From the IMG/VR virus record IMGVR_UViG_3300031555_006527: a DNA stretch of 64,000 bases; one strand, 5' to 3'. The stretch comes from an uncultured virus (IMG/VR IMGVR_UViG_3300031555_006527). Taxonomy: Duplodnaviria > Heunggongvirae > Uroviricota > Caudoviricetes. Every line of letters starts with the position of its first letter. Position 1 is the first letter of the stretch. Positions 4,421 to 26,567 of the stretch are shown here, piece by piece. The notes beneath the pieces are model-generated. The model had not been told where the DNA came from and ran no database searches. It saw nothing but the letters and a program-made list of their open reading frames with translations. Position numbers and translations under genes: made by a program.

Positions 4421-6099
4421 GTAAGAATGCAGGTAATCCCAGATTAGTTACCAGCCAGCAATATATTCGTTTATTTTTACCATTAACAAGAGTTCCATTC
4501 TTCAAGGGAAAATTAAGAGTATTAAAGCAATTATATCAAGGCATCTGTCCATATGAAGACAGAGAAGCAGAGCAGATGGCATTAAACTCTTTAATTGCCG
4601 CCATTTTAGGCTGTATAGGTTCTTTTTTCATATTCTTTTTAATGAACCTAGTATTTTTTGGCGTAACTCCCTATGTAGTTGTAGCAAGTGTAGCAGCAGC
4701 CTACTACATATTTAATGAAGTTTTGTTGTATCGACAGAATAAGCTTACGAATCAGCTTAACACAGAATTATCTTCGTTTTTCCTGAATGTATCCCATTAC
4801 TATCAAAGTGAGCGTTCTATTTTAACGGCATTAGAAATGGGTGCTACCTCTTTAAGTAGAGAAATTCAGACGACAGCAAGATTTTTAGAAGAGATTCTTA
4901 CGGCTGATAATGCTGAAGAACAGATTTACAATTATGTTACAGATGCAGACAAAAACTTATATTTAAAACTGTTTTTACAGCAATGCTACGAATGTTTTGA
5001 GCATGGAGATGCCTATATTAACGGAGTATCCTCATTTTGTGAAACGTTAGAGACATTTCGAGTAGACATGCTTCGGTCTAAAATTGACCGCCAGAAACAC
5101 AATGCCAGATTACAAGGATTGTCTTTTGTACTCTGGGTTCCGGCATTAGCCATGGGTGTTATCAAAAAGTTTGGTCTATCACTCATGGAAGATATGGTTC
5201 TTTTTTATACGGAATATGGTTTGTTTGTAGAGTTATTAACACTTGCCAGTGCCTTTATCTTATATCAGGCATTAAACAGAGCTAAATACCGTCATTTAAA
5301 GACCATCACCATAAAAGAATGGTATTACAAGGCACAAGACGCATTACAATGGTTTGAAGATACAAATCAGGGGTGGTTTGTAAAACAATTAAAAGCAGTT
5401 GCCTGTAATGCTCCTCCTAGTGTTTGTTATACCAAAATGACATTAGATGCAATTCTTGGAATGTTTGCCGGATTATTTTTAGTAGTGATTGGAGCAATTC
5501 AAAATCACACTACGGTTCATTCCAATCAATTACTTCTAATTCCTTTATGTGGGCTAGTAGCGTTAGCATTCCCAATTCAGGTACTCTTTTTAAAATATCA
5601 ATTTAAAAAGGACCGAGAAAATGAAGTTGACTCTTTCCAATTGTTAATGATTTCGGAACGTCACAGTAAAACGATTACATTAGCAGACTTATTATCTAAG
5701 ATGGAAAGACTTGCAAATTATTATCGTTTACCGATTGGTGAATGTTTAAACATGCTATCTTACGACCAAACAAAAGCACTCTCTGGCTTAAAAGCTGTTG
5801 CCGAACGAGAAGGGGATTTAACATTTAGTAATATTGTAGATATGTTAATTTCCATTGACCGTTTAGGTATTGAACAATCTTTCCAAGAACTCAAAATGAG
5901 TCGTCAATTAGGAATTGAAGAACGGCACATTATGTCAGATATTAAGGCAGACAATCAAGGAAACTTATTAGAATTTTCCTCTTCCCTGCCTGCAATTTTA
6001 GCCTTTGGATTATACGTTATTATTCCGTTTGTATATTATACATTTGTCGATATGGAAGACGTATTAGGCGTATTAAGCTCTATGGACACAATGTTTTAA
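4417..6099 (+). CDS. TadB/TadC-like fused inner-membrane platform protein
   Basis: Multiple TM segments in two repeated blocks; overlaps the TadA-like stop codon. Confidence 0.65.
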   Translation: MSKNAGNPRLVTSQQYIRLFLPLTRVPFFKGKLRVLKQLYQGICPYEDREAEQMALNSLIAAILGCIGSFFIFFLMNLVFFGVTPYVVVASVAAAYYIFNEVLLYRQNKLTNQLNTELSSFFLNVSHYYQSERSILTALEMGATSLSREIQTTARFLEEILTADNAEEQIYNYVTDADKNLYLKLFLQQCYECFEHGDAYINGVSSFCETLETFRVDMLRSKIDRQKHNARLQGLSFVLWVPALAMGVIKKFGLSLMEDMVLFYTEYGLFVELLTLASAFILYQALNRAKYRHLKTITIKEWYYKAQDALQWFEDTNQGWFVKQLKAVACNAPPSVCYTKMTLDAILGMFAGLFLVVIGAIQNHTTVHSNQLLLIPLCGLVALAFPIQVLFLKYQFKKDRENEVDSFQLLMISERHSKTITLADLLSKMERLANYYRLPIGECLNMLSYDQTKALSGLKAVAEREGDLTFSNIVDMLISIDRLGIEQSFQELKMSRQLGIEERHIMSDIKADNQGNLLEFSSSLPAILAFGLYVIIPFVYYTFVDMEDVLGVLSSMDTMF

Positions 6100-10365: not shown

Positions 10366-10490
10366 CGCTTTTTCGTTCAACGGCAGGACTATCTTAATTC
10401 AAAACAGCTAACATCACTCCTTTCTTTTTATTATAAAAAATCAGCAATAAACGAATTAAGATAACAGAGGTTCGACTCCTCTAAGAGCGA
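10366..10490 (+). ncRNA. tRNA-like RNA with extended anticodon stem and about 52-nt loop containing an anti-SD tract
   Basis: Acceptor cgctttt/aagagcg; D-arm gttc/ggac; 10-bp stem atcttaattc/gaattaagat; T-arm agagg-ttcgact-cctct; loop has catcactcctttc. Confidence 0.75.
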
Positions 10491-13044: not shown

Positions 13045-13110
13045 ACAAAAGTTTTGGAAATACGAGAGTAAATTTACTAACGTATTGTAAGTTCGATTCT
13101 TACCTTTTGT
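13045..13110 (+). ncRNA. Degenerate tRNA-like element lacking a D-arm
   Basis: acaaaag/cttttgt acceptor-like stem; T-arm gtaag-ttcgatt-cttac. Confidence 0.5.
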
Positions 13111-13253
13111 TTATTCTCTTTAGGATATCACCTCGTCCTAAGGAGAAGGTCAATAGAACTTTCTTGCCAAAGAAAACAATCCTCCTAGACAGGGAAAGAA
13201 CCACTTCCCAATATAGGAAGAATCGGTTCTTGAATAAAACAAGAGCCGAATCT

Positions 13254-13453: not shown

Positions 13454-13526
13454 TGGGGTGTGGTGAAGCGGTTAACACACGGGCCTTTGACTCCCGCATA
13501 CGAGGGTTCAATTCCCTCCACCCTAG
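13454..13526 (+). tRNA. tRNA-Gln(TTG)
   Basis: tggggtg/cacccta acceptor; ctTTGac loop; T-arm gaggg-ttcaatt-ccctc. Confidence 0.85.
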
Positions 13527-13551
13527 CTAGAATTTACAAATAAGACAGGAG

Positions 13552-14049
13552 TTGTTTTTGTTTAAGACTTTAATCTATGATGGTATAGAATATCCCCAAT
13601 TTTTAATTAGTGAGTCTGGAGAAATTCTCAATACAACTACAGACGCTTATTTAAAGCCATATCTACATCCAACAGGATATTATTACATATCTTTACCTAT
13701 GGGGAAAAGAGGTTTAGTAAAAACACTTAGGCTTCATAAAGCTCTTGCCGAAACTTTTATTCCAAATCCACACAATTATCCATTAGTTCATCACAAAGAT
13801 GAAGACAAAAGTAATTATAATTTATCTAACTTAGAATGGACTACTGTAAAAGATAATGTTAATAAGCATTTGGAATATGTTTCAAGAACAAATCCGCTGT
13901 GTAATAACAGAAAATTAACATCAGATGATGTGCGATATATTCGCAATCATAAAGGGGTTATTAGTCAACGAAATTTGGCGACTATGTTTCAGTGTTCAAA
14001 AACAACCATAAGAAATGTCCAACAAGGCGTTTGTTATCAACATGTTTGA
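13552..14049 (+). CDS. HNH homing endonuclease (NUMOD4/HNH_3-like, C-terminal HTH)
   Basis: RLHKALAETFIPNP.NYP.VHHKDEDKSNY..SNLEWTT..DN motif. Confidence 0.85.
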   Translation: MFLFKTLIYDGIEYPQFLISESGEILNTTTDAYLKPYLHPTGYYYISLPMGKRGLVKTLRLHKALAETFIPNPHNYPLVHHKDEDKSNYNLSNLEWTTVKDNVNKHLEYVSRTNPLCNNRKLTSDDVRYIRNHKGVISQRNLATMFQCSKTTIRNVQQGVCYQHV

Positions 14050-14085
14050 CTGCTGCAGACGCAGGTTCGAATCCTGCTACCCCAG
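14045..14085 (+). pseudogene. 3' half of a tRNA-Gln (anticodon to acceptor)
   Basis: tTTGactgctg..gcagg-ttcgaat-cctgc-tacccca-g; tacccca can pair with tggggtg; no 5' half upstream. Confidence 0.7.
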
Positions 14086-14726: not shown

Positions 14727-15279
14727 TTCCCCAGTTGCCAAAGGTAGCTTGGGACTAAGCTTTCGTTAAAAGAAACAAAGCGACTTCGCCAAAGCCGCAG
14801 AGAACTGTTTCACGAACGCTAAGATTTATATGGAACGATGTCAGAGATTAGTATTATGGGACATCCCAAGACGGTCCGGAATGTGGTTGTAGCCGTCCAA
14901 GTTTGGAGGAAGCCAAACAAAAAACATTTTTCTATCCTAGATAGACTGGGCTGGTTTCGGGTCCAGACAAGAAAATAAACTTCCAGCTCTATGCTGGGAG
15001 CGACTTTAAAAGTCGCTTAGTAATAAGGATAAAGTCAATATCTATTGGCGACTCATAACAAATTAGTAGACGCACAAAAATCCCAAAAGGTGAGTGTCAT
15101 ATTCCTTAGAGAATAACAGTTCGAATGATTTTTGAGTTTAACGGAAAACCAATACCATCTTACCTGACCTAAAGCCAGAGGGCTACTGCTAATGGCAAAA
15201 AGGCTTTAACGTATCCTGACGGATAGACCTAAGCTGGTTCGGTACGTATCTTGAAATAGGTACTATAGTTAACTCCAGA

Positions 15280-15865
15280 AATGGATGAATGTATGGATTG
15301 ATTTTAGACACAACTACCGCAAATAGGAGTGTTTAACTTACCTCCAAAGAATATCTGAAAACGAAAGACAGGTATTCCGAACAGGAGTTGGTTTCGCAAA
15401 AGCCGACAGGGTTGCGATGAATGGGCGGTACTCAAAAGGTACTGATGTTCAAACGTACACCTCGTAATCCAAAAAGAAAATAATATATTACACACTCATA
15501 CTGTGAAGAGAATTCAAAATAGGTGAATTTATTGTTCATAAAACTATGAATATACTTTTTTTCAAGCAAAAGTGTGTACGACTTCAAAGGGAAAAACAAC
15601 TTATCTATCTGTAATATGGTGGCTTCTTGAATCCGCAAGAGACAAGAAGAAGTAGTACAAGTAGATGCAACTCTAACAGACTGCAATCTGTGAATCTCGC
15701 AAGGAAGAATGTGTCAAACGGAAACTTATGAAGCTTTGGAGTAAGAGTTTGCTACTTTTTGCAAAAGTAGTGTTGTTCTTAACTACAGCTTAATCGGCTG
15801 TGTGACTAATCCTCTCCAATGGGGATAGAAGTTAAGATGTGGCGTCAAGGTCTCAGCGCAAACAG
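15280..15865 (+). ncRNA. Large ornate ncRNA, ROOL-like (GOLLD not excluded); boundaries approximate
   Basis: About 600 nt of hairpin-dense sequence with no + strand ORF, inside a tRNA cluster. Motifs ggtactcaaaaggtact, aagcaaaagtgt, tctcgcaagga and 3' tctcagc are recalled from this RNA class (not searched). Confidence 0.55.
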
Positions 15866-16020
15866 ACAAATTATTTTTTAACTGCTTGGTGGTAAAAGAA
15901 CGATATATAAAATAGCCATGACCTTTTAGTTACACCCAAAAAGTCTTGAATGATTTGGTCAAGAGAGAGGTTGTTCCATTTGGAGAATCGGGAGGATGGA
16001 AGCAGTTAATAAATGTTTTT

Positions 16021-16092: not shown

Positions 16093-16133
16093 CTTTGGCT
16101 GTCAAAGCCAATATAATTTAACATAGTTACTTG

Positions 16134-16496
16134 TGATGCTTACAGCAAAACTAAAATGCAAAATTTGAATTAACTATTCTAAAACATATTATTCAATTAG
16201 AGGCGTCCTGCTTCTTGCAATCAAACAAAAAAGCATCATGTAAAAAGTAAACTAACAATCTTTAGGGAAACATACAGCAAATCTACTACATATTCAAATG
16301 GGTTGAAGAAAAAAAGTTTCCTGTATAAAGATAACAACCGAACAAAAACCGATAGAGTTTTTTATTGGCAGCGTACATGTACAAAGCCAAATTTGAGCTA
16401 TTGTCAAAAAATTCTTAATGTAAAACATACAGCAATTCTGCTACTTGAAAAAGAAAAATTTTATGAAAAATCTTCAAAAAAAAAGCGTTTCATGTA
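16134..16496 (+). repeat. Three tandem stem-TACAGCAA...stem'-TGTA RNA motifs
   Basis: 16134-16242, 16266-16325 and 16421-16496; the stems differ in sequence but stay complementary. Confidence 0.75.
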
Positions 16497-17161: not shown

Positions 17162-17629
17162 ATGGCAGAGAGTAAATCTAAGTTATACAAAAGAAAAACA
17201 GTAGAAAAAAAATTGAATGAACTATTGGAAAGAATCTCGCAGCTTAATGAAGAAATATCACATCCGGAGTTTACGTGTTTTGTAGACGAAATGGTTGCTT
17301 TTGGTTCATATATAAACACAGATAATGAAAAAATACATGACCTTGATATAGCAATTAGGTTAAAGCTTAAACCAAGATATAATAATAATATAGGCCTCGC
17401 ATCAAGAGAAGCTCAACAACGAGCACCCGAAAATATTGATTTTTTACGTAAACTTTGCTGGTCCCAAGAAGAAGTTTATCAATATTTAAAAAACAGGTGT
17501 GGCATATATTCTTTTCATTTGTTAGACGAAGAGCGTAAAATTGTAGAAAGTGACATACATAAAGTACTCGTAAAGAATGGAAAACTTACGGGTCAATATT
17601 TAAAAAAATCGCGCGTAAAACGCAAATAA
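17162..17629 (+). CDS. Minimal nucleotidyltransferase (Pol-beta superfamily)
   Basis: AFGSY......IHDLDIAI (GS..DxD) motif. Confidence 0.75.
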   Translation: MAESKSKLYKRKTVEKKLNELLERISQLNEEISHPEFTCFVDEMVAFGSYINTDNEKIHDLDIAIRLKLKPRYNNNIGLASREAQQRAPENIDFLRKLCWSQEEVYQYLKNRCGIYSFHLLDEERKIVESDIHKVLVKNGKLTGQYLKKSRVKRK

Positions 17630-17639
17630 AAAAACATTT

Positions 17640-18024
17640 GGGCCTGTCCCGGTTTCGATGGGGCATACAAAGGAAAATAAGCACGTAGAGGATGGTGGAC
17701 ACCTCTTAAATCCGACACCAAAGAATAAATGCTAACGCATACAGACCAGTAGCTCAGGCTGCCTAATAGGTAAGTAGACTACACCCTTATCTGAAATGGT
17801 AAGGGATAAGCTCTCCGGATAACACCGCTATACTCCGGAGGGTTCAAAAATAGCGGTTGAGATACGGTAAAAGTTCACCCAGAAAGCCATATCAAAATAA
17901 AATCTGGCTGTGCGATGTCGATGGGTTTGCTTATTTAAACATCGGCTGGTACCAAAAATAAGATAAACGTGTAGAAAGTTTTATGGCGGTGTTCCAGACA
18001 GGAGTTCGACTCTCCTCAGGTCCA
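17640..18024 (+). ncRNA. ssrA: tmRNA; tag (A)ANAYRPVAQAA encoded at 17731-17766
   Basis: gggcctg/caggtcc acceptor with G3-U70 and A73; ggtttcga 5' motif; T-arm aggag-ttcgact-ctcct; ATAAAT-GCT resume context; tag ends in AA-stop. Confidence 0.92.
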
Positions 18025-18064
18025 CTCATTATCTCATCCTATATTATTTTGAATTAAGGTATTT

Positions 18065-18292: not shown

Positions 18293-18723
18293 TAATTTTT
18301 ATGGTTCTCTGTAAACAAATTATTTAGGAACAGAGTGGTGGGCTATTGGTTAGAAACCAGTACATATTGCAACAATAGTCTTTGACTGCACATCAAGCAT
18401 GTTGCACTGGCAGAGGAGTCTGCGAAAAGGTATCCTATCCCGGAGAGGTGCAGCTAGGGAGTAAGGAAGGAAGAGGCTCCTCTGAACAGAACAAACAAAT
18501 ATTTTGCTGAATTTCTATAAAATAAAATCTTTAGCTAAGTGTGCATAAGCTTTAGAAAGTAATTTGACATAGACGGCAGGTCATGACGATGACTAGAATA
18601 CTACAAATTTAAAGTTAGTTTCAATGCCGATAGCTCATCACTATAATTCAGCATTTGTTCTATAACAGAACAAGCAATAAGTTAATAAAAAACCCCTACT
18701 TATGTAGGGACTAATCCATCTTG

Positions 18724-18795
18724 TGATTCTTACAGCAAATCTTAAAACAGAACTGTAAATCGCAAATTTTACAAAATTATTTTACGAATCATGTA
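18724..18795 (+). promoter_or_regulatory. stem-TACAGCAA...stem'-TGTA motif abutting the RBS of the DUF2828 gene
   Basis: tgattc-ttacagcaa...gaatca-tgta-aggagg-N8-ATG. Confidence 0.7.
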
Positions 18796-18809: not shown

Positions 18810-20285
18810 ATGAGTTTACGTGAAGCTATTCACAACGAAGCAAAGTGGACAGAAACATGGAATGGTTGTGATACCTTAAAGACCACAGATTCCACCTGTC
18901 TAGACTTATTTGGTAGAGCCGGAGCAATGAGACAGGCTACTACAGAAGAAAAGAACCTGTTATTTAGCAGAGCTTTTCAGGAAAACAAGGATATTGCCGT
19001 AAAGTTATTATTCTATACCCGAGACATTCGTGGCGGATATGGAGAAAGAGATACCTTTATGGATATGTTCCGTCATTTAGCTGAAATCAATCCAGCATCT
19101 GTAGAGAAGAACCTTTGGGCAGTATTAGAATTTGGTCGTGCCAAGGACTTATATTGTTTGATTGGAACTCCTGCAGAATCTGCAATGTGGCAGTTTATGA
19201 AGGCTCAGTTTGAGTTAGACTTAGAGAACTTAGCAAAGGGAAATAGTATTTCTTTATTGGCTAAGTGGATTGCTACACCGGACTCTGGTTCTGAAGAAAC
19301 AAAGAAGCTTGGTAAGTTAACTGCCAAGAAGTTAGGTTATTCCTTCAAGACCATGTCTGACTATAAAAAGAAGCTCCGTTCTCTTCGTAAGTATTTAGAT
19401 TTACCGGAAGCAAAGATGTGTGCTGGTAAGTGGGACGAGATTGAGTACAGCAAGTGTGCATCTAAGTTTTTACTTAAGAACCGTAAGGCTTTTGTAAAGC
19501 ATGATGAAGCTCGTTGGACAGAATTCAATCAGAAGGTAGAAACTGGTGAAGAGAAGATGAACATGGGTACTGTTACTCCATGTGACATTATTCATCAGGT
19601 AAATACCAACTATACCAGAGACCTTGAAACCATGTGGAAGTCTCTTCCGGATGTATGTAAGGGAAATGCTTTAGTCATGTGTGACACTTCCGGTTCTATG
19701 AGCTGGGATAAGTCTGGAGGTATGTATCCAATTGAAGTCGCTACAGCTCTAGCAATTTATTTTGCTCAGAGAAACAAGGGTGACTTAAAGGATGTATTCA
19801 TGACTTTCAGCACTCATCCGGAATATGTAGAGCTTAACGGTGCTACATTAAAGGATAATCTTAATATCGTAAAGGAAGCTGATTGGGATGGTTCTACCGA
19901 CCTTGAAGCGGCTTTTGAGTTATTACTTAAGACCTGTATTAAGGGTAAGGTAACTCCAGAAGAAATGCCAGATGCTATTGTCATTGTATCTGATATGCAG
20001 ATTAACTGTGTAGAGGGTGTTGACCGTGAGCAGAACATGACATTTTACGATGTTATGAAAAAGCGTTATAACGAAGCAGGATATCATCTTCCACAGGTAG
20101 TATTCTGGAATGTCAACGCAAAGAATCCAACCTTCCATGCTGCTAAGAGTGCAAGAGGCGTATCTATGGTAAGTGGATATAGTCCAAACATCTTTAAGCA
20201 GGTAATGGAGAACATTGGAACCACACCTTACGAGCTCATGATGGCAGTAGTCAACAGTGAGCGTTACGAAAAGGTAGTAGCATAA
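18810..20285 (+). CDS. DUF2828-family / TROVE(Ro60)-like protein with C-terminal vWA domain
   Basis: LLFYTRDIRGGYGER; SLLAKW; MIDAS DTSGSM; W.GSTDLEAAF; IVSDMQ; VFWNV; VSGYSP. Confidence 0.85.
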   Translation: MSLREAIHNEAKWTETWNGCDTLKTTDSTCLDLFGRAGAMRQATTEEKNLLFSRAFQENKDIAVKLLFYTRDIRGGYGERDTFMDMFRHLAEINPASVEKNLWAVLEFGRAKDLYCLIGTPAESAMWQFMKAQFELDLENLAKGNSISLLAKWIATPDSGSEETKKLGKLTAKKLGYSFKTMSDYKKKLRSLRKYLDLPEAKMCAGKWDEIEYSKCASKFLLKNRKAFVKHDEARWTEFNQKVETGEEKMNMGTVTPCDIIHQVNTNYTRDLETMWKSLPDVCKGNALVMCDTSGSMSWDKSGGMYPIEVATALAIYFAQRNKGDLKDVFMTFSTHPEYVELNGATLKDNLNIVKEADWDGSTDLEAAFELLLKTCIKGKVTPEEMPDAIVIVSDMQINCVEGVDREQNMTFYDVMKKRYNEAGYHLPQVVFWNVNAKNPTFHAAKSARGVSMVSGYSPNIFKQVMENIGTTPYELMMAVVNSERYEKVVA

Positions 20286-20294
20286 TAGGAACAA

Positions 20295-20323
20295 AAGGCC
20301 TATCTAACCAATAGGTAGGCCTT
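20295..20323 (+). terminator. Hairpin after the DUF2828 gene
   Basis: aaggcctatcta..taggtaggcctt. Confidence 0.55.
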
Positions 20324-20350
20324 CTTCCTCACTATGTTCTAATAAAAAAT

Positions 20351-20477
20351 AGAGAAGTAGCTCAGATGGGAGAGCATCAGCCCTTATAAAAATGTTTCAT
20401 ATGTACGTGTGAAACTAACAGCAAGGAAAAAATTAAGTCCAAGCTGGTTGTCGTCGGTTCGAGCCCGACCTTCTCTA
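20351..20477 (+). ncRNA. tRNA-like RNA with about 60-nt insert in the anticodon loop carrying a permuted ACAGCAA motif
   Basis: agagaag/cttctct; gctc/gagc D-arm; tcagc/gctgg; gtcgg-ttcgagc-ccgac; insert gtttca..tgaaac-taacagcaa. Confidence 0.8.
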
Positions 20478-20795
20478 CTAGGGATATGGCAATTAGTCAT
20501 AAATCAATATGCAATAAGTCCATAACAGAGCCCCCTAATGTTTCCTGTACAAAGCGGCCTCCATCTCACACACCAATCCGCAATAGGGAAACAAACAGCA
20601 ATTTGTCTATTAGATTGGATGAGATGATTCTCTTATTAAAATATCGTCAACGTAAGAGTTTCATCGCTTGTGGGCTTCGGCAATGCAAGCACTCTTCGAA
20701 ACTGGTCCGATATGCCAATCGAAGTAAGTAAAAGGTAAGGAGTGAGGAGTCTCTTCATCCATTTTTAAACTTCTCATTCCTCATCTTTACTATTT

Positions 20796-20978
20796 GAGAG
20801 GAATTTCGTTTTTATAACGAAAACGGTAATTAGTCCTATCTATTTTTCTCCAGTGTGTTGTGTATTTGACTTATCATGTATACTCTTTGGGCAGGGTAGA
20901 CATAAATTTTTCTCCTTAGGTAAACAGTTTGTTACATCTGATAGGAACTAATTGGCGGTTCAAATCCGCCACCTCTCT
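20796..20978 (+). ncRNA. tRNA-like RNA with a long anticodon-arm loop carrying an anti-RBS sequence
   Basis: gagagg/cctctc; tttcgtt/aacgaaa; aattagtcctatc/gataggaactaatt; ggcgg-ttcaaat-ccgcc; loop cataaatttttctcctt. Confidence 0.7.
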
Positions 20979-21067
20979 TTTGTAGGGTTATTCTCAAATT
21001 TGCTTTTCTCTACAAAATGTTATCTTCCTTTCTAAAGATAGGGCTACGAAAATGGTCCTATCTATCT

Positions 21068-21112
21068 GCTTCCTAATTGGCATAAAAAAGGGTTCGATTC
21101 CCTTAGGAAGCA
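21068..21112 (+). ncRNA. Minihelix-like element (acceptor stem plus T-arm only)
   Basis: gcttcct/aggaagc-a with aaggg-ttcgatt-ccctt and a 13-nt connector. Confidence 0.6.
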
Positions 21113-21190
21113 TTTGGGTTCTCAACGTTTCCTTCCAAAAGCGTTGGTAGTTATTTTGATTTTCTTGTTCTTTCGACCAAAAAGTTAGTT

Positions 21191-21304
21191 ATGGGAGTTC
21201 ACGGTTGGTAAGTGCATGGACTCATTCTCCATGGGAATCTGTGATTAGAAATAATCATATGGTCAGGATTCATTATATGAGAGGTTCGAATCCTCTCTCC
21301 CGTA
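21191..21304 (+). ncRNA. tRNA-like RNA, CAT in anticodon position, oversized variable region
   Basis: atgggag/ctcccgt; cac/gtg D-arm; catgga-ctCATtc-tccatg; about 45-nt structured variable region; agagg-ttcgaat-cctct. Confidence 0.65.
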
Positions 21305-21547
21305 ATCTTTAAAGCAAAAAAAACTTCTTTTAAAAGAAGTGAGAGAATTAAGAGCTGAAATAAAAGAATTAGAAGCTCTATTATAAAACTAAACATTTTT
21401 TAGGTTTTCTAACCTCCATGTCTCAGAGATGAAAATATATTTATTCCTATGTCTCTGAGTTTTTTTAACTTAAAAAAAAGAATGTTTATTAAAGCAACTA
21501 AAAAAGTTTTGATTATCTGGCAAAATAAGCCTAAATGTCATTTATTA

Positions 21548-21577
21548 CCGAAAGATTAAACCAATTAGTAGCTAATA
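21548..21577 (+). promoter_or_regulatory. Promoter-like motif, copy 7
   Basis: ccgaaagattaaaccaattagtagctaata. Confidence 0.75.
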
Positions 21578-21676
21578 AGTGTGAATAAAAACTTTATCAT
21601 TCTTCCTCATCCTGTAGTTTTTTCTAAAGGGTTAAATTTCTTAGCCTTTTAGAAAGGCTATAGGAAAAGTATATGT

Positions 21677-21766
21677 GGCAATGTGGCAGAGTCTGGTTTA
21701 TTGCGGCGGTCTTGAAAACCGTTGACTCTCGAAAGAGGTCCGTAGGTTCGAATCCTACCATTGTCG
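21677..21766 (+). tRNA. tRNA-Ser(TGA)
   Basis: ggcaatg/cattgtc, G73; gcggt-ctTGAaa-accgt; long variable arm. Confidence 0.92.
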
Positions 21767-21875
21767 TTGTTTTATCATTTTTATTATGTCACATCCTAAA
21801 AAACTCCGAATAAGAATGAGAAAAACAAAAAATGCACCTTGAAAAATGAACAACGAGAAAAAGGAGGATAATCCA

Positions 21876-24752
21876 ATGAGTCGGATTACGAGATTATTTG
21901 CCGCACTTGTTGCTGCAGTTACGGTATGTACTTCTATGCCAATGACATCCGTTTATGCAGACAACAGAACCGTATTCACCTATGAAATTGATGGAAAAGA
22001 AGTAACTAATTTATCCATGACCGTAGGTGAAACCAAAGACATGGACACAAAGGGTACGCCAAAGAACAGTAGTCTTATTTTATGGACTAGTAGTAATGAA
22101 AAAGTTGCTACAGTAGATTCTGATGGTGTAATCACAGCAAAGAAAACTGGAACGACTACCATTAAAGTATATGTCGGAAATGGCAGCGCTTATACTTCTA
22201 CTGGTGTTACCTTAACTGTAACAGATGAGGCACCAGTCATTGTAGAGACAAAAGAAGAACCTACACTTGAAGAAGAAGATACCACTGCAGTATACCTTGG
22301 TACATCCAGAGATAACTTGTATGAAGAAATGACAGTAGAAGTTGGAGACATGGTTGACCTTAATTTCTACGGCGTTAAGAATTACAAAGCAAAGAACTTT
22401 AAGTGTACATGGTTCACAGACAATGAAGATATTCTTTATGTAGCAAATAATGGTTTATTCTTTGCAAAAGAAGAAGGTATTGCTACCATTTATCTTTCCA
22501 TTGTAAACAAATTAACTGGTAAGGAATTAAATGTATTCCCAACTACAGTTACTGTTGGCAGCTATGTAAGTGTTCTCCCAGAAACTCCAGAAGATGTAGA
22601 AAATCCTAACCTTCCAGAGGAACCTGTAGAAGACCCAGAACCAACAGAAATCCCTAAGCCAGAAATGAATTTAGTATTTGTGGCCGACAATAAGGTACAG
22701 CTTATGTTTCCGGAAGCTGTAAATTATGATAAGAATGCATATAAAGTATCCAAAGATGGTGTTTTTTACACTGTAGAGTCTATGGAACAGAAAAATGCGC
22801 AGACTGTTATCCTAACTACTACTGAAACTTTTGTAACTGGTGGAACTTATGAAGTAACTGTAGATGAATATCTTGAAGAAATCACAGCAGATTTTGCGAC
22901 ACCAGACCGCTTAGAAGTAGTATATTCTTCTTTAGGAGAACAGGGTAAAGCTTATGCAATGAACTATAGTTATTACACAGAAGATTCTGAAACTGAGTTA
23001 GACTATCGTTTATATGCAGATGGTGTTGATGTAACAAATACCTATTGTATGTATGGCTACATTTCCTATGAACTAGTTGGCGATAGTTCTCCTGATGTAG
23101 TATTTAATGAAAATTCCTTATTATTCTACGAAGCCAATAAGGTAGCGACTGTAAAAGCAACCTTTACCTATTGGAATACTGCCGGAGAAACAAAGGAATT
23201 AGTAAGTCCAGTCACTGTAATTCGTTCTATTGAACATGCACCATACCGAGTAACAGGCATTAAGGAATGGACATTAGTTAAGACTGATTCTACCGCAACG
23301 ATTAACTGGGATAAACCAGTTCATGAAGTTGTTGCTGGTACAGAAAAAGCATATCAGTTAGTTGTATTGATTACAGATAACTATGGTTATACATACACAA
23401 GTGATGACCGTGGTATCAATACTGCAAGAGAAATTTATAGTTTAAATGATTATAAGGCTCCATATGCATATTATGGTGGTCAGATTAACTATGTTGCTTC
23501 TACAAATTCCAATTATTATGTTGGTGCTTATGGAGAAGTTTATGCTTTTGATAGAGCAGGCTCTATCCCAACCAGAGTACAGTACTTAGATATTGAAGGT
23601 GCTGAAAAGAATATTGGCACCATTTCCATTAAAGTATTAACTCCATCTCAGGTAAATCAGCTTACTACTTCTTCCAACAATCTTTATGTTTCCAGTACAG
23701 CTATCAACAATATGGAAAGCATTGTATGTGTTGATACGGTTAAAGTTTTCCCATTAGACCAGTATGGTAAGCTTTGGACCGGAGATTGTGAATACGAAAT
23801 CAGTTGTACTACACAGGAAGTTCAAGAAGGTTTACGTGGAGGTTCTGGTTCTCCAGCATACATGATTGGAAACACTCTTGTTGTAAATGGTGCTGCCATC
23901 CGTTCTTACACAAACAGAAGCAGTGTTCAGTTCTTAATTACCGAATTGATTTCCGGTAAGACAGCAAGAGTAAATGTAACTGTAAAGAATCCAATAGTAA
24001 GAGACAATTTAATTGTTGTTGATGGTTGGTCTTTAGGAGAATCCAAGGTTCATGATTTAACCTTAAGTTACACAAGTGGTCCACAGAGTTTCTTTGTAGA
24101 CGTATTTAGAACAAGTGGAAATGTTAAGGTTGGTGTACAGGATTCTAATGTATATCTTTCCAACAATTCCAACCAGAAGTACACTGTAAATAACTGTTCC
24201 GAAGGTGATGTATATGTAACTATCACCGGACCAAACGGAAAAGTTCTTTCCAGTGCTACCGCAAGTGGTTCCAGTTTAACCATTTTCAATGGTAGAATTC
24301 AGGTACTTGCTTCTACAATGGATGAATCTGGAGCTATGAACGTATTAAGTAACGGTACATATACTGTAAAGGCTACCTACATCACCAAGAACGATGGAAT
24401 TACAGTAAATACCGCAAAGAAGACAACCACATTTACTATCCAGAATGCATCTACTGATGTAATGTTCCAAGGAGTAAAGAGCTCTTTAACAGAAATTATT
24501 GTAAGTAGTGTATCTGATGCTAAGGCAGTTGTAGCCGAAACCTTCCGTTTCAGCTATCAAGGCAGTGAATGGTTAGATTTCTCAGCGAATATGATTGAAG
24601 ATGTAACCTATTCTGTAAAGAATAATTATGTTACCATTAAGGATTTAGTATTACGAGTTCCATATGATGGACATTCTACAGATGGTCCAAGCTATCTGAT
24701 TACTTTATCCAATGTGAATAAAGCAATTCGCATGAAGACTAATTATAATTAA
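21876..24752 (+). CDS. Secreted/surface protein with bacterial Ig-like (Big_2) domains
   Basis: Signal peptide (..VYA); WTSSNEKVATVDSDGVITAKKTGTTTI Big_2 motif; Pro/Glu linker; beta-rich. Confidence 0.8.
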   Translation: MSRITRLFAALVAAVTVCTSMPMTSVYADNRTVFTYEIDGKEVTNLSMTVGETKDMDTKGTPKNSSLILWTSSNEKVATVDSDGVITAKKTGTTTIKVYVGNGSAYTSTGVTLTVTDEAPVIVETKEEPTLEEEDTTAVYLGTSRDNLYEEMTVEVGDMVDLNFYGVKNYKAKNFKCTWFTDNEDILYVANNGLFFAKEEGIATIYLSIVNKLTGKELNVFPTTVTVGSYVSVLPETPEDVENPNLPEEPVEDPEPTEIPKPEMNLVFVADNKVQLMFPEAVNYDKNAYKVSKDGVFYTVESMEQKNAQTVILTTTETFVTGGTYEVTVDEYLEEITADFATPDRLEVVYSSLGEQGKAYAMNYSYYTEDSETELDYRLYADGVDVTNTYCMYGYISYELVGDSSPDVVFNENSLLFYEANKVATVKATFTYWNTAGETKELVSPVTVIRSIEHAPYRVTGIKEWTLVKTDSTATINWDKPVHEVVAGTEKAYQLVVLITDNYGYTYTSDDRGINTAREIYSLNDYKAPYAYYGGQINYVASTNSNYYVGAYGEVYAFDRAGSIPTRVQYLDIEGAEKNIGTISIKVLTPSQVNQLTTSSNNLYVSSTAINNMESIVCVDTVKVFPLDQYGKLWTGDCEYEISCTTQEVQEGLRGGSGSPAYMIGNTLVVNGAAIRSYTNRSSVQFLITELISGKTARVNVTVKNPIVRDNLIVVDGWSLGESKVHDLTLSYTSGPQSFFVDVFRTSGNVKVGVQDSNVYLSNNSNQKYTVNNCSEGDVYVTITGPNGKVLSSATASGSSLTIFNGRIQVLASTMDESGAMNVLSNGTYTVKATYITKNDGITVNTAKKTTTFTIQNASTDVMFQGVKSSLTEIIVSSVSDAKAVVAETFRFSYQGSEWLDFSANMIEDVTYSVKNNYVTIKDLVLRVPYDGHSTDGPSYLITLSNVNKAIRMKTNYN

Positions 24753-26380: not shown

Positions 26381-26567
26381 CGCAGAGAATAAAGGAAGCT
26401 ATATTAGGAAAAAGGTGTTTGGGCAGTTTTTTTTGCATATTTGTTAAAACCTCCGAATTACATATATTTAGCAATTAACCATTTTGATAAACTCCTTAAG
26501 TAAATTTTGTCATTTTTACTATCCATTCTCCTTTTTCATAGCATGGGTTCAAATCCCATCTCTGCGT
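26381..26567 (+). ncRNA. tRNA-like scaffold carrying three tandem anti-RBS segments
   Basis: cgcagag/ctctgcg acceptor; atggg-ttcaaat-cccat T-arm; gctat/atagc and gaaaaagg/cctttttc stems; CAT..CCTCC, CAT..CTCCTT and CAT..CTCCTTT inside. Confidence 0.75.

Follow-up and report, generated by a model that had tools for sequence, protein, structure and literature searches.

What could a phage do with an RNA that has the ends of a transfer RNA (tRNA) and, instead of an anticodon loop, a long insert that is in part complementary to a ribosome-binding site (RBS)? The question is raised by positions 20796-20978 (plus strand, ~183 nucleotides (nt)) of a 64,000-nt stretch of an uncultured Caudoviricetes virus (IMG/VR record IMGVR_UViG_3300031555_006527), which was analysed as a whole and is here called the window. 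An earlier inspection of the letters alone (the sequence-only reading) had proposed this element to be a tRNA-like scaffold with an anti-RBS loop. Our tentative answer, to which we assign a probability of roughly 40%, is that this whole tRNA-shaped RNA gene yields a scaffold RNA of tRNA origin, the loop of which pairs with Shine-Dalgarno (SD) and start regions, possibly together with a Ro60-like protein.

Architecture and fold of the element

The ends of the element pair as in a tRNA. The 5' strand of an acceptor-like stem (GAGAGGA, 20796-20802) faces a 3' strand at 20971-20978 that ends in a discriminator-like T, CCA not being encoded; GAGAGG (20796-20801) pairs with CCTCTC (20972-20977), whereas position seven (A20802/A20971) is a mismatch. 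Stacked directly on these six pairs is a canonical T arm (GGCGG/TTCAAAT/CCGCC, 20954-20970). At the D-arm position (within 20804-20825) lies a hairpin whose loop lacks GG, and the anticodon stem is replaced by a long helix of 13 pairs between AATTAGTCCTATC (20828-20840) and GATAGGAACTAATT (20940-20953), with A20946 bulged. The anticodon loop is substituted by an insert of 99 nt (20841-20939), hypervariable in its 5' half (20842-20895). The acceptor-like stem, the 13-base-pair (bp) stem, the T arm and the loop of about 100 nt were all named in the sequence-only reading and were recovered as described there.

The 3' half of the insert holds a putative anti-translation-initiation block (20901-20934), consisting of CAT, an 8-nt spacer, CTCCTT and AGGTAAA and running on to TTTGTTA. 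The anti-RBS string reported earlier, CATAAATTTTTCTCCTT, is indeed found at 20901-20917, as are both weaker candidates (catgtatactcttt at 20876-20889 and ttttctcc at 20844-20851). The ATG on the minus strand (complement of 20901-20903) opens 9 codons before a TGA, again as claimed.

All four helices are found by unconstrained minimum free energy (MFE) folding, with an energy of -49.6 kcal/mol; shuffled sequences average -35.7 (z -3.82), and none of 200 folds as well. The MFE register of the D-position hairpin is 20804-20810/20816-20822. A promoter scan found no sigma-70-like promoter directly upstream of the element, which is consistent with processing out of a cluster transcript.

ARAGORN makes no call on the element (in the window it calls seven tRNAs and a transfer-messenger RNA (tmRNA)), and Rfam gives no match on it, either at gathering thresholds or at E-values up to 10. 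As in a tRNA, the acceptor is stacked on a T stem of 5 bp that is closed by a TTCRANY loop, the acceptor having six pairs plus A/A here and seven pairs in the relative described below. A canonical tRNA was rejected, given the 99-nt insert in place of the anticodon loop, the D loop without GG and the missing ARAGORN and Rfam calls. A tmRNA was rejected as well: pair 3:70 is G:C and not G3:U70, there is no tag frame, and ARAGORN and Rfam place a tmRNA only at 17640-18025. The third rejected candidate is a group I intron in a tRNA, with no Rfam intron family matching at E-values up to 10 and the anticodon-loop flanks absent; such an intron needs more than the 99 nt of the insert.

Conservation in a relative from bovine gut

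Public sequencing runs were searched with 20300-21800, and four runs were compared over that interval; contigs of the DNA runs reach up to 135 kb. In a bovine-gut metatranscriptome (run X8), a contig of 570 nt covers 20463-21023 with 37 substitutions and 23 gap letters, and the relative is therefore roughly 90% identical. Inside the element it differs by 19 substitutions and at least 9 indels (6 further indels are unplaced within the stretch).

Six substitutions fall on paired positions, and pairing is kept or improved in all six. Two pairs of changes are double compensatory, one in the long helix (20835 C>G with 20945 G>C) and one in the D-position hairpin (20809 T>C with 20823 A>G). The T-stem change 20969 C>T turns G:C into G:U, and 20971 A>T replaces the A/A mismatch by a pair, the seventh of the acceptor; a further change, 20946 A>C, falls on the bulge of the long helix. 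Even with a single relative, six out of six pairing-preserving changes argue clearly against a decaying pseudogene. Because 20809 and 20823 change together and the MFE register is broken by the changes of the relative, we place the D-position hairpin at 20807-20812/20820-20825 with a 7-nt loop (TATAACG); the hairpin of the sequence-only reading is thus present, in a register shifted from that of the MFE fold. Covariation had been proposed there as a check, and it is seen as these two double changes in one relative of ~90% identity. The tRNA-like scaffold is genuine, and its structure appears to be selected for.

The insert behaves differently along its length. Among the changes listed, 20842-20880 has 4 substitutions and 5 insertions, and 20896-20918 is free of change. 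Homologs that keep the loop and lose the anti-SD/CAT pattern had been named as a refutation; the single relative found retains the pattern, since 20896-20918 is unchanged. Just beyond, 20919 G>A and 20925 C>T (both transitions) produce the letters CUCCUUAAGUAAAU of a paralogous scaffold introduced below, and with U and G in the partner both changes would retain pairing via G:U wobble. The change 20895 G>A weakens a local hairpin over the CUCCUU of the element.

A second contig from an RNA library (2716 nt) matches 20901-20934 with 4 differences, and in the opposite sense the contig runs on as an open frame after ATG; the match is short enough that it can be due to chance.

A family of scaffolds with anti-SD inserts

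Scanning the window for a T arm with a matching 7-bp acceptor gave results on the plus strand only, including four further non-tRNA scaffolds (10366-10490, 13045-13111, 21191-21304 and 26381-26567). The first and the last have the same architecture as the element: an acceptor, a short hairpin, a long helix with a large insert, and a T arm. The scaffold at 10366-10490 (plus strand) has a 7-bp acceptor, an 11-bp long stem and a T arm; its loop (10401-10452) carries AUCACUCCUUUCU, which agrees with the 3' end of a Clostridia 16S ribosomal RNA (GGAUCACCUCCUUUCU) at 13 of the last 14 bases, one C being missing. The insert of the scaffold at 26381-26567 (plus strand) contains a homologous block, CAT-N9-CTCCTTAAGTAAA, and a second CTCCTT.

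The block common to the element and scaffold 26381 can be written CAT-N8/9-CTCCTTARGTAAA, with CAT located 8-9 nt upstream of CTCCTT in both. When the two RNAs are aligned, only this block (20901-20934 against 26480-26513) and the T loop match up. The 13-mer TTTACYTAAGGAG has exactly two copies in the window, both antisense and both in these scaffolds (20912-20924 and 26492-26504). Overall, the three scaffold inserts (305 nt) hold 4 of the 14 plus-strand copies of CTCCTT in the window where 0.07 are expected (Poisson p ~8e-7 in a post hoc test), and two of the three plus-strand occurrences of CAT-N6-10-CTCCTT lie within scaffolds (whole-window shuffle mean 0.59). According to base-pair probabilities, the CUCCUU of scaffold 10366 and the first CUCCUU of scaffold 26381 are in open loops, the loop of the former being predicted as fully unpaired. 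Scaffolds 10366 and 26381 start 8 and 36 nt past the stop codons of upstream open reading frames (ORFs).

A related phage, recorded as a 268-kb IMG/VR contig, also has a tRNA-like scaffold (139391-139529); it contains GCACUCCUUUUCU, one of the seven CTCCTT copies of that phage, and cannot be aligned with scaffold 10366. From sequence comparison, then, the element is to be counted as a member of a small scaffold family in this phage, and the anti-SD/CAT pattern across its three scaffolds is non-random by the counts given.

Other tRNA-like RNAs differ in shape. Two of them, of 67 nt (13045-13111, plus strand) and 79 nt (141185-141263 of G001), have an acceptor, a T arm and a long anticodon-like stem, without D arm. 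The 114-nt RNA at 21191-21304 (plus strand) has a 7-nt loop CUCAUUC, with CAU at the anticodon position, and a variable arm of ~46 nt; against the Rfam tRNA-Sec model it scores 22 bits (E 0.39). Between this RNA and the element lies a partial copy of 20828-20843 (21050-21065, 88% identity), with a bare acceptor/T-arm minihelix behind it (21068-21113, plus strand; Rfam tRNA 25 bits). Repeat and minihelix (21036-21113) point to module shuffling.

The Ro60-like neighbour and its RNA cluster

The predicted product of the gene at 18810-20285 (plus strand) resembles Ro60/TROVE and has a vWA domain (Pfam DUF2828, DUF7788 and VWA_2). In the PDB, all of the top 13 Foldseek matches to its AlphaFold2 model (7-sequence alignment; predicted local distance difference test 77, predicted template-modelling (TM) score 0.72) are Ro60/TROVE structures, including the Ro60 of Thermus phage phiLo (E 1.9e-8 to 1.1e-4, TM-score 0.43-0.59, 500-580 aligned columns). 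At the level of the model the product thus matches the fold of Ro60/TROVE; a sequence-profile link to TROVE is not significant (E 0.79), and the Pfam assignment is DUF2828 rather than TROVE. Titles and abstract openings of the DUF2828 papers found reveal no apparent link to TROVE or Ro60. Y RNAs are encoded beside Ro60 genes and have tRNA-like domains, according to PMC4201824, and PMC12135203 describes host PNPase and two adjacent Y-like RNAs as binding partners of the phiLo Ro60.

Downstream of the gene follow two further RNAs before the element is reached. RNA A (20351-20477, plus strand; Rfam tRNA 47 bits) has the body of a canonical tRNA, its anticodon loop carrying an insert of 60 nt, and RNA B (20478-20795, plus strand) is unscaffolded and has the same hairpin and ACAGCAA motif as A. 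We compared four loci whose neighbour proteins are 73-78% identical to that of the window (L001, L015, L016 and L018). In each, two Rfam-scoring tRNAs with anticodon-loop inserts of 55-70 nt (8 of 8) follow the gene, for instance at 5845-5967 and 6198-6335 of L001. RNA A has counterparts in all four, and an unscaffolded RNA stands between both tRNAs in the three loci that were read (L001, L015 and L018). The acceptor, D and T arms of these tRNAs are intact; since no anticodon loop remains, they are not ordinary intron-bearing tRNAs. Inserts and middle RNA share a hairpin GUUUCN...N'GAAAC, the sixth pair of which covaries (A:U or C:G), followed by NNACAGCAA. The strand bias of ACAGCAA (22 against 4) is mostly a coding-strand effect and was therefore rejected as a signal. 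In the window, the element occupies the slot of the second tRNA of these loci (RNA C). Among distant homologs of the protein (29-61% identity), no insert-bearing scaffolds were found in the fetched flanks, and two of these homologs adjoin ordinary tRNA arrays.

RNA-library contigs cover 20345-20467 and 20463-21023 and end there, that is, from RNA A to a hairpin just beyond the element; the contig of the bovine-gut relative spans RNA B together with the element. That the RNA run lacks cover at 21065-21520 is given no weight. In a DNA contig from run X5, the insert of RNA A (20375-20450) is swapped for 20 letters resembling a normal anticodon arm, and this contig is probably an ordinary tRNA of another organism with a common tRNA body.

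RNA B has two CGAA words in a hairpin (~20695-20735) and GGTCCGA at 20704, and judged by its sequence it may be the strongest candidate for a Y RNA in the cluster. GGTCCGA had been considered as a metazoan Y-RNA word and was dropped, as it is not conserved in the RNA B of the relatives. An 81-amino-acid ORF within RNA B (20486-20731) has no Pfam match, and by eye there is only a short frame at its L001 counterpart. The sequence TGTGAnnCnnACAGCAA recurs in non-coding DNA, at 16125-16148 and 18715-18738 of the window and around 170905, 202330 and 254473 of G001; it is often found just 3' of tRNA genes, and also 75 nt upstream of the Ro60-like gene, and could be a promoter or a processing signal.

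Proposed mechanism and its support

We propose that the element gives rise to a stable, non-decoding RNA of tRNA ancestry that would have retained the acceptor/T-arm minihelix, with the D arm replaced by a short hairpin and the anticodon arm by the 13-bp helix capped with the 99-nt insert. The acceptor/T minihelix (12 bp) is the recognition unit for RNase P, RNase Z and the CCA-adding enzyme. By analogy with tRNA biology, the scaffold would probably allow excision from a cluster transcript and protection of the ends. Activity would reside in the 3' half of the insert, CAU-N8-CUCCUUAGGUAAA, which might pair antiparallel with the SD, the spacer and the AUG of an mRNA, so as to block binding of the 30S subunit. 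In favour of this reading, the genes of the phage use this SD, with 25 AAGGAG-N6-10-ATG sites on the plus strand of the window. The start region of such a partner would read 5'-(G)UUUACUUAAGGAG-N8/9-AUG. Given its position, the element may act within an RNA particle of the Ro60-like protein. A more far-reaching version, which we consider speculative and improbable, regards tRNA-shaped carriers as exchangeable guides, the insert pairing with the ribosome-binding regions of chosen mRNAs that the Ro60-like protein, perhaps with host PNPase, silences or destroys; if true, this would be a programmable Ro/Y-type particle directed at translation starts.

Searches for homologs had little yield. The exact words GGAACTAATTGGCGGTTCAAATCCGCC and CTAATTGGCGGTTCAAATCCG have no match in the viral contigs and none in the genome contigs. 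BLAST of 20700-21400 against the 268-kb relative gave T-loop-sized matches only (best E 0.002), and GenBank phages searched with 19000-23000 gave tRNA-Ser matches only. A search for targets in the genomes of 185,579 species (ACAAAN{1,3}TTTACYTAAGGAG) gave 66 scattered matches in many phyla, approximately a rough chance estimate. Three of the 66 are one gene start in gut Clostridia metagenome-assembled genomes (L043, L065 and L088), a lead only; by eye, the protein at this gene start looks like a glycoside hydrolase.

A number of observations weigh against a role in pairing with start regions. The complement of the block is not found in the 64-kb window with up to 3 mismatches, an exact copy of the core word is not found in 21 fetched loci, and a search allowing 7-8 mismatches gave nothing in the 268-kb relative or the window. 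The duplexes of the loop with 103 gene starts reach -34.6, within the range of shuffled loops (mean -29.2, sd 2.9, best shuffle -38.2), and the gene starts of the window thus pair with the loop no better than they do after its letters are shuffled. Upstream of the SD, none of the 25 gene starts with AAGGAG-N6-10-ATG exceeds 7 out of 10 bases of match to the block, and a generic anti-SD RNA would also strike the phage's own genes. Base-pair probabilities have the CUCCUU of the element mostly paired with AGGG (20893-20896). As to the structure, one terminal pair of the D-position hairpin is lost in the bovine-gut relative (20807 deleted, AAT inserted after 20824), and covariation amounts to two events only because there is a single relative sequence. 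The RNA-library contigs are a weak hint of expression, as DNA carry-over is possible and ends, strand and level are invisible in contigs. The element also has neither the insert motif (hairpin plus ACAGCAA) of RNAs A, B and C nor the canonical D arm of the relatives, and it would be tied to the Ro60-like protein by adjacency alone.

These target searches covered 64 kb of the phage, the 268-kb relative and the fetched loci, and a target may lie elsewhere. For the anti-RBS loop of the sequence-only reading, the pattern itself has held up (non-random across three scaffolds and kept in the relative), whereas a complementary mRNA was not found. The interpretation is only partly supported, given the lack of such an mRNA, the partly paired CUCCUU (by prediction) and expression data from the contigs of one RNA library.

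Alternative explanations

The alternative that survives best, though we regard it as doubtful, is that the element is a Y-RNA-like partner that tethers or gates the Ro60-like protein, its pyrimidine-rich insert binding PNPase or an S1-domain effector instead of an mRNA. The setting is suggestive: 511 nt separate the element from an upstream gene, the model of which matches Ro60/TROVE along its entire length, phage Ro60 included, and tRNA-like RNAs directly follow this gene in all four close relatives, much like the Y RNAs with tRNA-like domains next to Ro60 genes (PMC4201824) and the two adjacent Y-like RNAs bound by phage Ro60 along with PNPase (PMC12135203). The details of the RNA fit less well, as the Ro-binding motif GNCGAAN0-1G has no regular-expression match in 20286-21850, the sole CGAA of the element (20818-20821) is lost in the bovine-gut relative via 20819 G>A, and the topology is reversed (the acceptor ends are open here, closed in YrlA). 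Neither would one expect the hairpin and ACAGCAA motif of RNAs A, B and C to be missing, two sister scaffolds to stand apart from the gene (one ~8 kb before it, the other ~6 kb after it), or homologs at 29-61% identity to have no insert-bearing scaffolds in the fetched flanks.

It might also be argued that the element is a processing or punctuation element, with the tRNA-like ends serving as RNase P/Z sites or 3' protectors and the insert being incidental. The lack of a sigma-70-like promoter directly upstream, the start of scaffolds 10366 and 26381 shortly (8 and 36 nt) after upstream ORF stops and the bare minihelix at 21068-21113 would all agree with this. A minihelix alone would suffice for the purpose, yet compensatory changes preserve both the D-position hairpin and the long helix of 13 bp, and the insert block is enriched and common to a paralog; we consider this explanation rather unlikely.

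That the element is functionless debris of tRNA gene duplication or recombination, now decaying, is at odds with the six out of six pairing-preserving or -improving substitutions in a relative diverged by ~10%, the fold z of -3.8, the coverage by RNA-library contigs and the insert block conserved with the paralog. Shuffling does occur in the region (the 88% repeat of 20828-20843 at 21050-21065, and, behind an HNH gene, the orphan 3' half of a tRNA at 14055-14085), the element has lost its D arm as well as its anticodon, and relatives carry a different RNA (C) at its position. On balance, we judge decay to be quite improbable.

Highly improbable, in our view, is a real start at AAGGAG-N8-ATG on the minus strand, opening a micro-ORF of 8-9 codons on an antisense transcript. 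Its SD and spacing are perfect and, by eye, the sole substitution of the relative within the ORF (20895) is synonymous; however, the tRNA-like genes are on the plus strand (as are the 90 ORFs, though these come from a plus-only scan), the promoter scan found no minus-strand promoter near the element, the minus-strand ORF of the paralog has 4 codons and an unrelated peptide, and a CTA insertion after 20879 shortens the ORF in the relative. An intron-bearing tRNA or small tmRNA, suggested by tRNA-like ends around a large insert at the anticodon position, is hardly credible without an ARAGORN or Rfam call or Rfam intron match at E up to 10, without an anticodon loop on either side of the insert or G3:U70, and with a genuine tmRNA elsewhere (17640-18025).

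The surrounding RNA island

The window seems to belong to a large phage; a scan of the plus strand only gave 90 non-nested ORFs of at least 70 amino acids. An RNA island at ~10-27 kb holds the seven tRNAs, the tmRNA (17640-18025), a GOLLD-like RNA and the tRNA-like RNAs. Across the window there are 11 copies of the T-loop word GGTTCRANTCC, all of them on the plus strand, against an expectation of 0.2. The GOLLD-like RNA (15409-15859, plus strand) matches Rfam RF02032 over the full model with 76 bits, below the gathering threshold of 150 (E 3.8e-19), and ~14760-15900 is without a long ORF.

At 13454-14085 (plus strand), an HNH endonuclease ORF (13552-14049) stands between an upstream tRNA-Gln and the orphan tRNA 3' half (14055-14085), which consists of a T arm plus TACCCCA and could pair with the 5' acceptor strand of the tRNA-Gln; this arrangement looks like the footprint of a homing-endonuclease insertion. 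A small Pol-beta-type nucleotidyltransferase gene (17162-17629, plus strand) lies directly upstream of the tmRNA gene.

Comparison with known systems

In the literature searched, we found no description of phage tRNA-scaffolded anti-SD RNAs. If our reading is true, phages would have naturally invented the laboratory tRNA-scaffold trick, using it to display anti-RBS sequences, and the small tRNA-like RNAs encoded in phage tRNA clusters, a group without an assigned role ever since T4 rnaC and rnaD, would gain a first testable function. Moreover, Ro60-like proteins of the divergent DUF2828 branch would be connected with a set of RNA partners. The analysis also flags a gut/rumen jumbo-phage RNA island in which tRNAs, a tmRNA, a GOLLD-like RNA, a Ro60-like gene and several tRNA mimics occur together.

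Like the element, Y RNAs (YrlA, Yrn1 and phiLo Yrl1/2) stand beside a gene with the Ro60 fold, mimic a tRNA in part and have a canonical T arm; the presence of several RNAs per locus is likewise shared (PMC4201824 and PMC12135203). Unlike them, the element lacks a CGAA/GNCGAAG motif, ends in an acceptor stem rather than a Ro-binding stem and has a D arm that is not tRNA-like, and its neighbour protein belongs to the divergent DUF2828 family (TROVE profile E 0.79).

Both the element and T4 rnaC (species 1 RNA) are genes for small RNAs located among phage tRNA genes, and both RNAs combine a tRNA-like T arm with a terminal stem. According to PMC3014915, the role of rnaC is unknown. In its predicted fold, this 139-nt RNA has the T arm CCGGG-UUCGAAU-CCCGG, a terminal stem and long internal hairpins for the other arms. 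It differs from the element by having no CUCCUU block, and no Ro60-like gene is found in the T4 stretch fetched; a resemblance in sequence was not noticed, no search aimed at it having been made.

In Firmicutes, RsaE/RoxS and RNAIII are trans-acting small RNAs (sRNAs) whose C/U-rich loops pair with SD regions. The element resembles these by a pyrimidine-rich CUCC motif that complements the SD and would presumably block the RBS; the anti-SD motif is present and enriched, predicted as mostly paired here and as open in scaffolds 10366 and 26381. It differs from them by a tRNA scaffold instead of a terminator-ended sRNA, and by a complementarity that extends to the spacer and the AUG. In the engineered 'tRNA scaffold', a foreign RNA module takes the place of the anticodon loop and the tRNA body provides processing and stability; in contrast, the element is natural and its D arm is degenerate. 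We file the element next to known kinds, namely the tRNA-like stable RNAs of phages, the Y-like RNAs and the anti-SD sRNAs.

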